DNA of 64,000 nt from Terriglobia bacterium (GTDB lineage: Bacteria; Acidobacteriota; Terriglobia; 2-12-FULL-54-10), in assembly GCA_963666975.2 (NCBI GenBank), contig CAXVYR010000004.1, positions 1,664,001 through 1,728,000 of the forward strand. Reading direction: 5' to 3'. Below are positions 5,279-15,737 of this stretch, one piece after another. Under the pieces are notes generated by a model, which saw only the letters and a list, made by a program, of their open reading frames with translations, was not told where the DNA came from and ran no database searches. Within the stretch, counting starts at the first letter, position 1, and each line of letters opens with the position of its first letter. The position numbers and the translations under genes were made by a program.

Positions 5279-5731
5279 ATGGCTCATGCACCGGGGAAAT
5301 TTTGCGGGGACGTAAACAAGGTTCGCTGGAGCTTGATTGCAGGCACCCTCACGCGAACGACCACCGAGGGCGGGATATGGAATACAACTGAAATGCCCGT
5401 CCAGCAAGTGATGGGGATCGAGAAGCTGACGATTGAGGAAAGCCGCCGGGCGCCGCTCGGCGTGCCGGTTACGTTATTTGCCGTGGCCCTTTTGGCGATT
5501 GCCGGATGGGCCGGCTCGATCCCCGTCGGCGTGATCGGGATGCTCTGCCTGTTTTGGGGCGTCCGGATGCTCCCCAAGCAGAAGGTCTCGCACGAAGCTC
5601 ACCGGCTGCTGGGCCCCGGTCTGGACCCGAAGGAATGGGTGCTGGTCGGCTCCGGCGCTGACGTCGCAGGCTTCCTCGATGCGCTCCAGTCCGAGCTGTC
5701 GCAAAAAACCGAGTCGGTGCAGACGCAGTAA
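5279..5731 (+). CDS. hypothetical membrane protein (start uncertain)
   Basis: ORF with two hydrophobic segments. Confidence 0.45.
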   Translation: MAHAPGKFCGDVNKVRWSLIAGTLTRTTTEGGIWNTTEMPVQQVMGIEKLTIEESRRAPLGVPVTLFAVALLAIAGWAGSIPVGVIGMLCLFWGVRMLPKQKVSHEAHRLLGPGLDPKEWVLVGSGADVAGFLDALQSELSQKTESVQTQ

Positions 5732-5819
5732 GAAAACGCGCCAGGAAAGAAAAACGGAAGGAAGAACGAAAGAAGGGAAAGCGGCAGGGCAACGGGAGTG
5801 AGCCAGCTCTGAAGCTTTT

Positions 5820-6725
5820 TTAGAAGACTCGGATCATCTTCAAGCCGCTGGCCAGCACCAGCAAGGCCATCCCGAACTTCAGCGGCCGGGCTGGAGTTAA
5901 GTAAGCCAGCCGGCTGCCCAGAATCACGCCGGGCAGGGAACCCAGCAGCAAGTTAGCCGCAAGCGGAATATCGACGGTCCCAATCTGCCAGTGCGTCACG
6001 GCGGCGGCGCTGACCAGCACCAGGGCATGGGCGATGTCGGTCCCTACGATGCTGGTGGCGGGAAGCCGCGACACCGCGATCAACGCCACGGCAATCAATG
6101 CCCCGCTTCCCACCGAGGTGAGCCCCACCAGGAAACCGACCCCAGCTCCCAGCAGGATGATCTTGGCGCGGTGCGCCCGCGGGTCAAACGGCTCCGATAC
6201 GCCATCCTCACGGCGGCGCTTCCGGTAGATTTCATGGATCAACGTAACGAAGGCGGCCAGGACCAGTACCCCGCCCAGGCCCATCCGCACCATTCCGTCC
6301 GCCGAGCCGTACTGCAGGTTGACGTAGTGGATCAGGTAGCTGGCTGCCACGGAGGCCGGAACGCTCCCGATGGCCAGGTATCGCACCCAGCCCCACTGGA
6401 TGCTGCCGCGCTTCCAGTGCTGGTGGGACCCAACCAGCTTGGTCACCGAGCCGTACAACAGGTCGGTCCCCACGGCCACCATGGGGCGCACGCCCAGCAA
6501 GATGAGGATCGGGGTAAGAACGGAACCGCCCCCGACGCCCGTCAGCCCCACCAGGAAGCCGACCACCAGCCCCACTAGAATAATGAGAAAGCGGAGTTCT
6601 GAGATCAGTTCTCCGGTGGACTGGGCCAACTCCGCCTGGAGGAAATGGAGCAACGCCGCCCCGGAGGGCACGTCGAACAGCGTCATCGCCGCTGCGTTGC
6701 CGGATTGTATGAGGCCGATTGCCAT
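5820..6725 (-). CDS. TauE/SafE (TSUP) family sulfur-compound transporter
   Basis: GLTGVGGGS and GLTSVGSG repeat motifs, AVGTDL/VGTDIAHA, about 8 TM. Confidence 0.9.
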   Translation of the reverse strand: MAIGLIQSGNAAAMTLFDVPSGAALLHFLQAELAQSTGELISELRFLIILVGLVVGFLVGLTGVGGGSVLTPILILLGVRPMVAVGTDLLYGSVTKLVGSHQHWKRGSIQWGWVRYLAIGSVPASVAASYLIHYVNLQYGSADGMVRMGLGGVLVLAAFVTLIHEIYRKRRREDGVSEPFDPRAHRAKIILLGAGVGFLVGLTSVGSGALIAVALIAVSRLPATSIVGTDIAHALVLVSAAAVTHWQIGTVDIPLAANLLLGSLPGVILGSRLAYLTPARPLKFGMALLVLASGLKMIRVF

Positions 6726-6759
6726 CGAATTTTCTGCGAGCTTCCTGAAAACCTGCGTA

Positions 6760-6804
6760 AAAACAAAAAACCCACCAACCGATTTGCCGGTTGGTGGGTT
6801 TTTG
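6760..6804 (-). terminator. intrinsic terminator (attenuator) in the TauE leader
   Basis: AAAAACCCACCAACCG-gcaaat-CGGTTGGTGGGTTTTTTGTTTTT on the minus strand, upstream of the TauE ATG. Confidence 0.9.
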
Positions 6805-6826
6805 TAAGCCTGAATTAAGAAAAAAT

Positions 6827-6943
6827 CTAATTCAAACCACTACCCCCCGCGCCGGCAGACGTACAACAACACATACAACAGCACGCCATCTGGCCGCTGA
6901 CCATTGTCTGGGTGTTTGCCGGTTTGGAGTAGCAGAAACGCAT
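6827..6943 (-). CDS. Cys-rich leader peptide MRFCYSKPANTQTMVSGQMACCCMCCCTSAGAGGSGLN (start could be an internal Met)
   Basis: TGC TGT TGT ATG TGT TGT TGT codon run; lies between promoter and terminator. Confidence 0.8.
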   Translation of the reverse strand: MRFCYSKPANTQTMVSGQMACCCMCCCTSAGAGGSGLN

Positions 6944-6975
6944 TGAACAAATAGTAATTGCTAAAAGCAAGCTCC

Positions 6976-7005
6976 ATTCTAGGAGGCCCCCGTCTGGCGT
7001 GTCAA
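6976..7005 (-). promoter_or_regulatory. sigma70 promoter for the Cys leader/TauE unit
   Basis: TTGACA-18 nt-TAGAAT. Confidence 0.75.
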
Positions 7006-7132
7006 GCAAATAATCACCAAATTTTAAGCCATTTTTGCGCGTCACCGCTTTACCTGCCAGAAGGGGTTTTGCCTGCCGGGAGGGCGTTTCCCCCAGGCGT
7101 GGGCCGCCTGGTTTTATGAGTGAACATTTCCC

Positions 7133-7161
7133 TAGACAGCCAGGAACGGCGGGCATATAAT
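7133..7161 (+). promoter_or_regulatory. sigma70 promoter for the aroF leader
   Basis: TAGACA-17 nt-TATAAT. Confidence 0.75.
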
Positions 7162-7178
7162 GGCTGCCATCTGAGGTT

Positions 7179-7244
7179 ATGGGTAAAAATTCAATGCTCG
7201 AACGCACTCGATTTTACTTTTACTGGAGGTGGGCGGGCCGCTGA
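7179..7244 (+). CDS. aromatic-rich leader peptide MGKNSMLERTRFYFYWRWAGR (alternative start 7194)
   Basis: F-Y-F-Y-W-R-W cluster directly upstream of a terminator and aroF. Confidence 0.85.
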   Translation: MGKNSMLERTRFYFYWRWAGR

Positions 7245-7269
7245 AAGGATTCAGCAGCGTTGAGTTCCC

Positions 7270-7305
7270 GCCCGCTCGGTCAGCCCGAGTGGGCTTTTTG
7301 CTTTT
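7270..7305 (+). terminator. attenuator terminator of the aroF leader
   Basis: GCCCGCTCGG-tcagc-CCGAGTGGGC followed by TTTTTGCTTTT. Confidence 0.9.
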
Positions 7306-7350
7306 AGGGACGCTTTCCGGTCGAGGCGCGGCTTATCGCGGAGGCAAAAC

Positions 7351-8400
7351 ATGATTATATCAATGAAGCTAAGGGCCAGCAAACAGGAGGTGGAGCACGT
7401 CTGCCAGCTTCTCCGGGAATTTGGTTATAAAGCCCACACCATCCAGGGAGAGGAGCGGGTCGTCATCGGCGCCGTGGGCAAGCTGGAAAACAAGCAGCAG
7501 GTGATGAACTCCATCGAATCCGCGCCGGGCGTCGAGTCGGTGGTCGCTGTCAGCCAGCCCTACAAGTTTGTCAGCAAAGAATCGCAGCCGGGCAAGACCG
7601 TTCTCCGGCTCGATGGATGCTCCATCGGCGGCGCCGAGTTTGCCGTCATTGCCGGCCCGTGTTCGGTGGAGAGCGAGCAGCAGATACTGTCAACGGCAGA
7701 GGCCGTCAAGAAGGCCGGGGCCACCATCCTGCGCGGAGGCGCCTTCAAGCCCCGCACCTCCCCTTACGATTTTCAGGGCCTCGAAGAGGAAGGCCTCAAG
7801 TTGCTGCGAAAAGCAAAGGAGAAAACGGGGCTGGCCGTCTGCACCGAGGTGATGTCGCCACAGGATGTGGAGATGGTCGCCGAGTATGCCGACGTGCTGC
7901 AGATAGGCGCTCGCAACATGCAGAACTACACTTTGCTCAAGCGGGTGGGCAAGACGAACAAGACGGTCATGCTCAAGAGAGGACTCAGCGCCACGATCAA
8001 GGAGTTGCTGCTCTCGGCCGAATACATCCTGACCGGCGGCAATCCGAATGTCTTCCTGTGCGAGCGCGGCATCCGAACCTTTGAGACCTACACCCGGAAC
8101 ACGCTGGACCTGTCCGCCGTCCCGGCGCTGGCCGAGCTTACCCACCTGCCCATCATCGCCGATCCCAGCCACGGCACGGGGAAGCGTTCCCTCATCCCTC
8201 CCATGTCCCGTGCCAGCGTGGCCGCCGGAGCCGACGGGATCATGGTGGAGGTCCATACCAATCCGGAGAAGGCATTCAGCGACGGCGCACAAGCCTTGTT
8301 GCCTTCCGAATTCGACCAACTGATGCAGGACCTGAAACCTTACCTGGAAATCTGGAAAGCCACCCGCACGGCTGCCCAGGCCTCCGCCGTGGTCGCATAA
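7351..8400 (+). CDS. aroF: DAHP synthase, class I-beta with N-terminal regulatory domain
   Basis: [36 protein letters not shown] motifs. Confidence 0.95.
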
Positions 8401-8683: not shown

Positions 8684-9454
8684 TCAAGAAGCCGTACCCT
8701 CCGGCTTCCCTTGCAACCCTAACCTCATAATCTCTGGATTTGTAGATCGAATGATTCTGAGAATTGCGACAGGGAACGCTGACGGTGGACCCACGCCTCC
8801 TTCCATCCGCTGGTTTTCTCGATCTCCAAAAACGCAAAATCCAGCTTGCTCCAGTTCGCGAAGTAATGAGGCCATCTTAAAAGTCGCTCTTACCCGCGCG
8901 GCTGCTTCCATATCAGACCACATTTCTCCGTAGTCCTGTGCTTCCTGAAGAAAGTGACCAACCAGATCAACTTCTGCTTCGGAATGAAGTTCTTCGTGTT
9001 CAAACGAGCTTGCCGAGGCGTCGCCCACGATCTTCATGATGTCGCCACCTGACGTAAGACGCACAAGCAAAGGAGGAATGTTTTCTTTGATACGTCGTAT
9101 ACGAACCGGCTGGACCTGCTTCTCCTCGGTTAGGGTTGACGATACCCACTTCTCATGGTTTGCCTTTATCTTATGAAGTACCTCAGCAGTGTAGGTTTCA
9201 TGCTGATCGTCGACCATCTTGTGGTGAGTTCGGCATAACAAAACCAGGTTATCTGGCTCATCTAGGCAGTCAGTTCGGAAGGCAAGATCGTGTCTTGGCC
9301 CCTGGCCTTTCCCCGAAACGATGTGGCATTCCTCACCCACCACGGATTCGTCATCCGCCGGGGTAGCTTCTACCACTAGTTCTCGCCTACATATGGCACA
9401 CCGGTTTCCAGACTTTCCCCACAAGACCTTCCTCGTTTTATCTGAGATTGACAT
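8684..9454 (-). CDS. HNH endonuclease with uncharacterised C-terminal domain
   Basis: LWGKSGNRCAIC, ECHI, GPRHD, NLVLLCRTHHKMVD; lower GC. Confidence 0.8.
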   Translation of the reverse strand: MSISDKTRKVLWGKSGNRCAICRRELVVEATPADDESVVGEECHIVSGKGQGPRHDLAFRTDCLDEPDNLVLLCRTHHKMVDDQHETYTAEVLHKIKANHEKWVSSTLTEEKQVQPVRIRRIKENIPPLLVRLTSGGDIMKIVGDASASSFEHEELHSEAEVDLVGHFLQEAQDYGEMWSDMEAAARVRATFKMASLLRELEQAGFCVFGDRENQRMEGGVGPPSAFPVAILRIIRSTNPEIMRLGLQGKPEGTAS

Positions 9455-9601
9455 GAGCCACGATGTCTTGACTAATGAGCAGCGGGTGTCTCGCAAAGTA
9501 GATTTTTTCGTGGGCCTTCTTAACAGTAGAAAACGAACCTGCCCGCACTAGTGCGATTATACCTAAACGAGATGCCTCAGAGCCGTTGAGCACCACTCGG
9601 C

Positions 9602-14385: not shown

Positions 14386-14757
14386 ATGAGACAAAAACAA
14401 GACGACAGGGGGGCGGTCGAGAAGGCCGTCCGGGAGATCAAACGCAGGACGCGGCGCAGGTTCAGCCCGGAAGACAAAATCCGCATTGTATTGCAGGGAC
14501 TTCGCGGCGAGGACAGCATCGCGGAGCTGTGCCGCCGCGAGGGGCTGCACCAGAACCAGTATTACCGCTGGAGCAAGGAGTTTCTGGAGGCTGGCCGCAA
14601 GCGGCTGGCGGGCGACATAGACCGTGAGGCAACCAGTGGCGAAGTCAAGACTCTGCGGGAGCAGGCCGTACAGCTGAAAGAGGCCCTGGCCGAGGCTATG
14701 CTGGAAAATCGCCTGCTAAAAAAAAGCGTGATCGGGGATGGGGAGGAACATACATGA
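14386..14757 (+). CDS. transposase OrfA (HTH)
   Basis: FSPEDKIRIVL..SIAELCRREG; A8G slippery site at 14718-14726. Confidence 0.9.
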   Translation: MRQKQDDRGAVEKAVREIKRRTRRRFSPEDKIRIVLQGLRGEDSIAELCRREGLHQNQYYRWSKEFLEAGRKRLAGDIDREATSGEVKTLREQAVQLKEALAEAMLENRLLKKSVIGDGEEHT

Positions 14758-15737
14758 GATACCCTGCCTCGGAGAAGCTGGAGATCATCTGCACGGTGGA
14801 GCAATCTGCCCTGGGGGTGCGCCGGACGCTGCAGCAGGTTGGCATTCCCAGATCGACGTTTTACAACTGGTACGACCGCTATGTGTCGGAAGGCTTTGAT
14901 GGGCTGGAAGACAAAAAACCCGATCCTGGCCCTGTCTGGAACAAGGTGCCGGAGGAGATAACTCAGCAGTTGGTGACGTTAGCCCTGGCCGAGCCCGATC
15001 TGTCGTCACGCGAGCTGGCGGTGCGTTTTACCGAGGAAAGGCGGTATTACCTTTCTGAATCGACGGTTTACCGCGTCCTGAAAAGCCATGACCTGATTAC
15101 CGCGCCAGCCTTTATTGTCCTGAAAGCGGCGGAACGGTTCGCCAACCCGACCACGGCGGTCAACCAGCTCTGGCAGACCGACTTCACCTACCTGAAAGTC
15201 ATCGGTTGGGGCTGGTTCTACCTGTCCACGGTGCTGGACGACTTCTCGCGCTATATCATCGCCTGGCGGCTGTGCAAAACCATGAGCGCAAGTGACGTCT
15301 CGGCCACGTTGCGGGATGCTTTGCAAGCCACCGGCCTCGACCGCGTGGGCGCCCGGCACAGACCTCGCCTCCTGAGCGACAACGGGCCGTGCTACGTCTC
15401 TTCCGAACTGCAATCATGGCTGGCAGAAAACAGCGTGCCGCATACTCGCGGCAAGCCCTATCACCCCATGACGCAGGGCAAGATCGAACGCTGGCACCGA
15501 ACTCTGAAAGACCGCATCCTGCTCAACAACTATTACCTGCCAGAAGAGCTGGAGCGGCAGATCGATGCCTTCGTCAACCACTACAACACCAACCGATACC
15601 ATGAAAGCCTGAACAACCTGACACCGTATGACGTTTTTACAGGCCAAGGCAGTGCCATCCTGCAAAAACGGGATCGCATCAAAGAGAAAACTATGATCTT
15701 AAGAAAACGGTTGCACTTCAAAAGAAGGGCAGCCTAA
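14754..15737 (+). CDS. transposase OrfB (rve DDE integrase core)
   Basis: WQTDFTY, LSDNG, GKIERWHRTLK. Confidence 0.93.
   Translation: MRYPASEKLEIICTVEQSALGVRRTLQQVGIPRSTFYNWYDRYVSEGFDGLEDKKPDPGPVWNKVPEEITQQLVTLALAEPDLSSRELAVRFTEERRYYLSESTVYRVLKSHDLITAPAFIVLKAAERFANPTTAVNQLWQTDFTYLKVIGWGWFYLSTVLDDFSRYIIAWRLCKTMSASDVSATLRDALQATGLDRVGARHRPRLLSDNGPCYVSSELQSWLAENSVPHTRGKPYHPMTQGKIERWHRTLKDRILLNNYYLPEELERQIDAFVNHYNTNRYHESLNNLTPYDVFTGQGSAILQKRDRIKEKTMILRKRLHFKRRAA

Follow-up and report, generated by a model that had tools for sequence, protein, structure and literature searches.

What is the role of a short open reading frame with six Cys codons, followed by a hairpin, ahead of a gene for a TauE/SafE membrane transporter? 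The question arises from a locus on the minus strand of the Terriglobia bacterium DNA analysed here (64,000 nucleotides of contig CAXVYR010000004.1, hereafter the window). An earlier note, made from the sequence alone, had read the locus as a cysteine-sensing leader-peptide attenuator. The parts it named are all in place, in the order promoter, leader ORF, stop codon, terminator and TauE gene (Table 1), and the run CCCMCCC with five of its six Cys codons being UGU is read directly from the DNA. The comparisons described below, which concern conservation, the frame of the leader, complementarity of the antiterminator and the sulfur genes that follow, support the attenuator reading. We consider it very likely that the element is a ribosome-controlled transcription attenuator sensing charged tRNA-Cys, and a Cys attenuator with tauE as its target is with high probability the best explanation overall.

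Table 1. Features of the tauE leader locus (positions in the window) and the two sister Cys leaders of the source genome (positions given as G000:C4).
Feature	Position	Strand	Details
-35 hexamer TTGACA	7005-7000	minus	sequence; 18 nt spacer to -10
-10 hexamer TAGAAT	6981-6976	minus	sequence
Leader ORF, 38 aa, MRFCYSKPANTQTMVSGQMACCCMCCCTSAGAGGSGLN	ATG 6943 to TAG 6827	minus	translation
Sensing codons CCCMCCC	6883-6863	minus	TGC TGT TGT ATG TGT TGT TGT
Leader stop codon	6829-6827	minus	
Segment 1, putative protector strand, CUACUCC AAA CCGGCA	6932-6917	minus	duplex with segment 2
Segment 2, predicted antiterminator strand, UGCCGG CGCG GGGGGU	6857-6842	minus	
Inner hairpin around the leader stop codon	6840-6804	minus	main helix of the earlier note
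Segment 3, terminator 5' arm common to the antiterminator	6803-6785	minus	CCCACC 6798-6793, CCGGCA 6790-6785
Segment 4 (terminator 3' arm) and U tract	6782-6759	minus	
TauE/SafE (TSUP) membrane transporter, 301 aa	6725-5820	minus	PF01925
Sister Cys leader ahead of sulfite reductase	G000:C4:1085312	minus	run of seven Cys codons; the stop follows one codon after it
Sister Cys leader ahead of sat-cysH	G000:C4:1767878	minus	weaker CCCPC run

The promoter pair TTGACA-18 nt-TAGAAT agrees with the consensus at 11 of 12 positions, and the region 5500-7600 holds two promoter-like sites against 0.3 expected. We infer that transcription starts near 6969, about 26 nt ahead of the leader ATG. A leaderless start from TACTAT (6956-6951), 7 nt ahead of the ATG, is possible; since TACTAT has no -35 match, the upstream promoter is preferred. 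The leader has no Shine-Dalgarno site (computed pairing +1.5 kcal/mol) and contains additional in-frame ATG codons at 6904 and 6889. The predicted terminator hairpin (6803-6766) has 17 pairs and is followed by U6-G-U5; the tauE start lies 45 nt beyond the hairpin and outside it. In a profile search the TauE protein matches PF01925 with E 7e-48 and 163.7 bits (gathering score 32.6), and no PDB relatives of it were found. The upstream neighbour is aroF, encoding DAHP synthase; it is divergent to the tauE leader and the hairpin therefore ends no upstream gene. Rfam gives 17 weak matches, none near a gathering score. Contigs from four RNA-library runs contain parts of tauE and the neighbouring genes only, and the leader is not covered.

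Runs of Cys codons of this density are rare in the genome. There are 316 six-frame genome windows with at least four Cys per seven codons and just three with six or more. Two of these three, the tauE leader and the sulfite reductase leader, have a terminator and a sulfur gene downstream. Codon usage in the tauE run differs from the rest of the genome (GC 57.7%), where UGU makes up 26% of the Cys codons in long ORFs. The single tRNA-Cys gene has the anticodon GCA, which reads UGU by wobble, and this would sharpen sensing.

Conservation of the leader was followed among TauE orthologues collected by protein similarity, independently of the leader. The 61 searched genomes contain five close orthologues (57-94% identity), all with the leader. 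A metagenome search gave 27 TauE loci, five of them at 64-68% identity and again all with the leader; one of these five leaders is identical to that of a genome locus and one contig is cut short upstream. Thus the leader precedes all nine distinct close TauE orthologues found. The earlier note had proposed a search for poly-Cys uORFs with hairpins ahead of TauE and cys genes in relatives and had named absent conservation as evidence to the contrary; such elements were found at nine of nine orthologues, which contradicts the latter. Among more distant TauE genes of the searched genomes, a single one, belonging to another family (L019), also has a Cys leader. A Cys-run ORF is absent from 21 of 22 metagenome contigs with TauE below 56% identity (about 450-700 nt upstream covered, several contigs cut short). 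The one match among the 22 was judged spurious.

In the alignment of the window leader with eight orthologous leaders (nine sequences) the ATG column, the ends of the terminator and a large part of the Cys run are invariant. Insertions and deletions between the ATG and the Cys run are all multiples of three. A promoter of the form TTGACA/T, 17-18 nt, TAnnnT is found by eye upstream of the leader ATG in all nine. The peptide tail and the frame of the stop codon vary (the stop frame differs in the closest relative, G002), and the Cys run and the pairing segments alone are kept. This is expected of a cis-acting leader and not of a functional peptide.

The same arrangement extends beyond tauE. The search pattern was built from the Cys run plus the ends of the terminator, with the antiterminator left out. 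It is present in 23 of the 401 genomes of the class and a reversed control gives none; in the other classes of the phylum none of 229 genomes has it, for the one strict sequence form covered. Scanning GTDB with the pattern yields at least 119 stretches, at least 113 of which precede sulfur genes on the same strand. According to tblastn, the next gene among the 119 matches listed encodes sulfite reductase in 62 cases, rhodanese in 28 and 1-Cys peroxiredoxin in 6; cysD follows in 5, tauE and cysG in 3 each, sat and SBP56 in 2 each, cysK and cysH in 1 each and pth in 2, and 4 are without assignment. The two matches ahead of pth are false and one more looked spurious. Of the 80 named records among the matches listed, 73 are Acidobacteriota, mostly Terriglobia.

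Duplicates and three leaders judged false (L101, L104, L105) were removed, and culling of leaders more than 90% alike reduced 134 to 85. These non-redundant leaders have 5-10 Cys codons each, with UGU accounting for 354 of 522. An ATG in frame with the Cys run occurs in 82 of the 84 leaders that have enough upstream DNA, while the other two frames give 5 and 5. A Shine-Dalgarno pairing of -5 kcal/mol or better is found in 7% of 82 leaders versus 64% of 64 downstream genes. Spacing between the -10 element and the ATG peaks at 6-10 nt in the family, and by this spacing part of the family looks leaderless; leaders of the TauE branch have a short untranslated stretch before the ATG.

Two explanations that dispense with sensing have to be weighed against these data. 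It is hardly credible that a UG-rich stretch lies beside an ordinary terminator by chance. The pattern does produce false matches, the three described above among the 119 listed, but nine distinct orthologous leaders, the frame bias of 82 versus 5 and a control of 0 in 401 speak against chance, as does the divergent orientation of aroF, which leaves the hairpin no upstream gene to end. Very unlikely, too, is a functional Cys-rich peptide (metal or redox) or a small RNA locus that the terminator merely ends. CCxCCC-like peptides can bind metals and the promoter is near consensus, both of which would suit such a locus; however, beyond the Cys run the peptide shows no conservation, its stop frame differs in G002, the sulfite reductase leader stops one codon past the run, 113 of the 119 matches listed precede same-strand sulfur genes and no Rfam match reaches the gathering score.

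Several individual leaders deserve mention. Three records titled Bacteroidetes or Saprospiraceae (L103, L151, L154; assignment by record title) carry convincing-looking leaders and terminators, ahead of a PALP enzyme (cysK-like) or sulfite reductase. A leader with its sulfite reductase in a record titled Candidatus Eisenbacteria (L083) is nearly Terriglobales-like, reflecting either transfer or mis-binning. In L179 a Cys leader and terminator stand ahead of a DUF4395 gene. A shorter leader form is seen ahead of 1-Cys peroxiredoxin genes and once ahead of SBP56 (L065, L066, L077, L079, L096, L097, L121, L127; L080). The peroxiredoxin and SBP56 genes behind the leader may serve sulfur supply rather than stress.

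For the attenuator reading, the RNA between the Cys run and the U tract would have to fold in two alternative ways. The outer antiterminator helix pairs UGCCGG (6857-6852) with CCGGCA (6790-6785); it is extended by GGGGGU:CCCACC and closed by the inner hairpin. The full antiterminator is computed at -29.7 kcal/mol, and the pairing given in the earlier note at -17.1 kcal/mol. The latter pairing does exist but is the inner part only, and the outer helix and the protector had been missed. The inner stem GUUUGAAUUA:UAAUUCAGGC coexists with the terminator and is compatible with both states; since it is also present in the terminated fold, the inner hairpin itself does not block termination. In the alignment of nine, the outer helix is paired in 80% of cells and five of its nine pairs are changed on both sides, compared with 76% and 64% of cells in the inner parts (64% in the inner hairpin), so that the outer helix is the better conserved part of the antiterminator. 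The terminator is paired in 95.7% of cells, two pairs being changed on both sides. Covariation over the whole structure was reached by 6-13 of 500 shuffles on four measures and by 128 of 500 on the fifth, a modest signal from nine related sequences.

As the antiterminator was left out of the search pattern, its complementarity is a separate test. In 56 of 85 leaders the 36 nt past the Cys run outdo their shuffled versions in pairing with the 5' arm of the terminator (z < -1.64), while three control windows give 0, 1 and 1 of 85; the threshold was missed by 29 of the 85. Own antiterminator pairs average -18.9 and crossed pairs -16.1 kcal/mol, a difference reached in 0 of 20000 permutations, a count that is overstated because kin are not independent. 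A structure-free alignment of the 85 leaders with a plain covariation score gave no usable ranking, as G-U wobble swamped it. In a background-corrected G-test, terminator pairs rank 1, 2 and 7, an inner-hairpin pair 3 and an antiterminator-register pair 6, among many non-pairing lineage effects.

Segment 1 is an upstream copy of the motif that pairs with segment 2, and in the window it can form a duplex of -22.5 kcal/mol with that segment. Across the family the 1:2 pairing is -24.3 kcal/mol for own and -21.0 for crossed partners (0 of 5000 permutations, subject to the same overstatement through kinship; control region 255 of 5000), and singly 24 of 84 leaders pass z < -1.64. In the nine aligned sequences 89.9% of cells are paired, with covariation not above shuffles, i.e. 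the pairing is kept mostly by invariance. The upstream protector would give a trp-like 1:2/2:3/3:4 layout, in the segment numbering of the trp attenuator. Segment 1 sits 33 nt ahead of the first Cys codon in seven of nine orthologues and 21 and 24 nt ahead in the others; across the family the distance ranges from 3 to 48 nt. At 33 nt, segment 1 lies outside the footprint of a single ribosome.

On the finished RNA the terminator (-45.4 kcal/mol) always wins over the antiterminator (-29.7 kcal/mol). Equilibrium folding gives a terminator probability of 1.0 for every 5' truncation and never yields the antiterminator for the whole leader, so folds of nascent lengths are needed, and the switch would have to be decided kinetically, while the RNA grows. 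The leading edge of the ribosome was set 13 nt beyond the A site in nascent folds. With a ribosome stalled at Cys21, 23 or 25, the antiterminator has a probability of at least 0.99 for RNA ends 6785, 6781 and 6777, and the terminator appears from 6773 onward. With the ribosome at the stop codon, the upper stem of the terminator nucleates at 6777 (probability 1.0). About 14 nt of RNA are inside the polymerase when the U tract is reached, which makes 6777 roughly the relevant RNA length. The earlier note had called for folding with and without ribosome occlusion; in such folds the antiterminator is seen on nascent RNA with a stalled ribosome but not on the finished RNA.

It is important to note two results of the nascent folds that count against the simple picture. 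A ribosome that stalls at the last Cys codon hides the core helix. When RNA on both sides of the stalled ribosome is left free, 1:2 closes around the ribosome and the terminator forms at 6775. In terms of these folds this is a real weakness of the model unless such closure is barred, be it by steric hindrance or by a queued ribosome.

The preferred sequence of events would be as follows. RNA polymerase would start near 6969 and a ribosome would translate the leader. With ample cysteine the ribosome would reach the stop codon and cover segment 2 in part, and the portion left uncovered could re-pair with segment 1; the 3:4 hairpin would form and transcription would end at the U tract. When cysteine is short, the ribosome would stall in CCCMCCC and leave segment 2 free to pair with the emerging terminator 5' arm, allowing read-through into tauE. 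A different route is quite unlikely: the Cys run could sense cysteine through a block of Rho, mRNA stability or tauE translation, the hairpin being a leaky fixed terminator. Mycobacterial poly-Cys leaders do act on translation (bioRxiv 10.1101/834739, accessible text), and equilibrium folding strongly favours the terminator over the antiterminator. Two points stand against this route. Throughout the family segment 2 has specific complementarity to the terminator arm, with which it varies, and the hairpin, ending 45 nt ahead of the tauE start, does not include that start.

A broader form of the attenuator reading holds that one RNA switch has been copied across a multi-locus Cys regulon, also in Bacteroidota, and that its TauE branch needs two ribosomes. 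We regard this as rather doubtful. The idea of two ribosomes comes from the position of segment 1, which lies 33 nt ahead of the Cys codons, beyond the stalled ribosome and at the place of a queued one; the variable spacing stands against it, and simple steric blocking explains the same data. If it is true, read-through would reflect both how long the ribosome stalls and how often translation starts on a leader that lacks a Shine-Dalgarno site.

Regarding the target, two further Cys leaders in the source genome (Table 1) mean that the whole assimilation path would share the switch: each of the three leaders, ahead of tauE, sulfite reductase and sat-cysH, has a terminator and a foldable antiterminator. 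By eye, no Cys leader is found in this genome ahead of cysK, cysG, peroxiredoxin, rhodanese and the three other tauE genes. Relatives have clusters that begin with tauE, of the form tauE-sat-cysH, tauE-cysD-cysN-cysH or tauE-cysH; in the source genome the cluster is split and tauE stands alone. Most likely, TauE would bring in sulfate for a regulon made up of three loci, tauE, sat-cysH and sulfite reductase. The earlier note had argued that induction on Cys starvation implies import. Induction alone is not enough for that conclusion, as a sulfite exporter might be switched on together with the pathway too; other grounds make import likely. One is the place of tauE in the cys clusters of relatives; another is that no sulfate-binding protein or CysT is found above the cut-off in the source genome (98.9% complete). 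A strong APS reductase (E <= 1e-50) occurs in 34 of the genomes searched; Sbp is above the cut-off in one of them, and a listed TauE match lies within about 3 kb of cysH in 16 (hand count). In E. coli, a TauE homologue associated with genes of sulfate assimilation compensated for the loss of cysA (PMC11535334, accessible text). Taken together, TauE is probably a sulfate importer.

It is possible, if unlikely, that the attenuator is real and TauE instead exports sulfite, or moves thiosulfate or organosulfur, as a co-induced safety valve. The name of the Pfam family and its earliest characterised members point to export (PMC11535334, PMC5840216, in the parts accessible), the one SulP permease of the genome could import sulfate, tauE is alone in the source genome and it has no PDB relative. 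On the other side stand the position of tauE as first gene of clusters with sat, cysDN and cysH in relatives, the lack of a sulfate-binding protein or CysT above the cut-off, the 1 of 34 versus 16 of 34 genomes given above, and the rescue of cysA loss. We therefore continue to prefer sulfate import.

The neighbourhood has features of its own. Back to back with the tauE leader, ahead of the divergent aroF, there is a second putative attenuator (7133-7304, plus strand), with a promoter TAGACA-17-TATAAT, a leader peptide MGKNSMLERTRFYFYWRWAGR with many Phe, Tyr and Trp residues, 1:2, 2:3 and 3:4 helices that can fold, and a terminator at 7270-7294. A leader containing F-Y-F with a terminator precedes aroF in nine of nine family loci examined (by eye, one with a GTG start; a tenth locus lacking upstream DNA is excluded from the count). 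Judged from its codons, this leader would sense all three aromatic amino acids, and no report of such an attenuator was found in the literature searched. In the closest relative a tRNA-Glu(CUC) is called between aroF and the tauE promoter (L006 1130-1203, G002), which is absent at the same place in the source genome. Between aroF and mfd there is an HNH endonuclease gene (8684-9496, minus strand), and two overlapping ORFs at 14386-15737 (plus strand) look like what we take to be an IS3-type transposase pair. A crude genome scan also found a short ORF with two Trp codons followed by a hairpin and U tract (G000:C4:939224, plus strand), which may be a tRNA or chance.

How does the element relate to known systems? 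Like trpL of E. coli, hisL of Salmonella, thrL, pheL and ilvB of Corynebacterium, it has a short leader ORF with a run of a pathway amino acid. As in classical attenuators, as defined in the accessible text of 10.1101/834739 and PMC11109978, its predicted antiterminator and terminator share strands, as the putative protector would, and a U tract precedes the first gene. Unlike them, it would sense Cys and control sulfate uptake and reduction; its leader has no Shine-Dalgarno site, copies occur before several separate loci, and in seven of nine orthologues segment 1 lies 33 nt ahead of the first Cys codon, outside the footprint of one ribosome. Mycobacterial polycysteine ORFs (Ms5788A) resemble it as poly-Cys uORFs before cysteine-pathway genes, including the rhodanese-type cysA2. 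Ms5788A exerts translational control by Shine-Dalgarno masking, and was shown not to act through termination (Canestrari et al., bioRxiv 10.1101/834739, accessible text); a later source still cites the mycobacterial case as translational (PMC13236596, accessible part). Cys leaders predicted in Actinobacteria are given there with no terminators (PMC1262725, accessible part). In contrast to the leaderless mycobacterial case, the tauE element has a conserved terminator and antiterminator and about 26 nt ahead of its ATG.

According to the authors of 10.1101/834739 in its accessible text, attenuation by a uORF had not been reported for cysteine before 2020. Closest in layout is uORFC-8-2, a prediction with two Cys codons and an intrinsic terminator before cysS, in Rhodobacterales only (Brewer et al. 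2021, PMC8632094). The accessible part of that source proposes read-through on Cys shortage and mentions neither an antiterminator nor a test. The tauE element is likewise a Cys-codon uORF with an intrinsic terminator; compared by description, the present family differs in having 5-10 Cys codons (six in the tauE leader) and biosynthesis or transport genes, with 115 of the 119 matches listed assigned to genes other than cysS (cysS was not among the queries). The accessible parts of PMC2965389, PMC4833913 and PMC11109978 mention no Cys leader, and no publication on this terminator-type Cys element was found in the openly accessible article text searched. The view of the earlier note that such a version is not a textbook case thus holds for the terminator/antiterminator form, but a Cys uORF with a terminator had been predicted (PMC8632094). 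While the class of mechanism is textbook, the Cys version was found in no organism as experimentally tested. The TauE of the window shares its Pfam family and its link to sulfate-assimilation genes with the TauE-family sulfate importers TK06_RS10770 and Ac3H11_578 (PMC11535334) and with CysZ of C. glutamicum, of the TSUP family (PMC5840216), a likeness at the level of the Pfam family. Attenuation is unmentioned in the accessible parts of these two sources, and since PMC11535334 already shows a TauE sulfate importer there, import by TauE is less new.

Cysteine has been a gap among the amino acids sensed by terminator/antiterminator leaders, and a family of more than 100 putative terminator-type examples fills this gap. 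In abundant, little-studied bacteria the leader marks the members of the Cys regulon, in which TauE would probably import sulfate and the genes for rhodanese, 1-Cys peroxiredoxin and SBP56 would serve sulfur supply.
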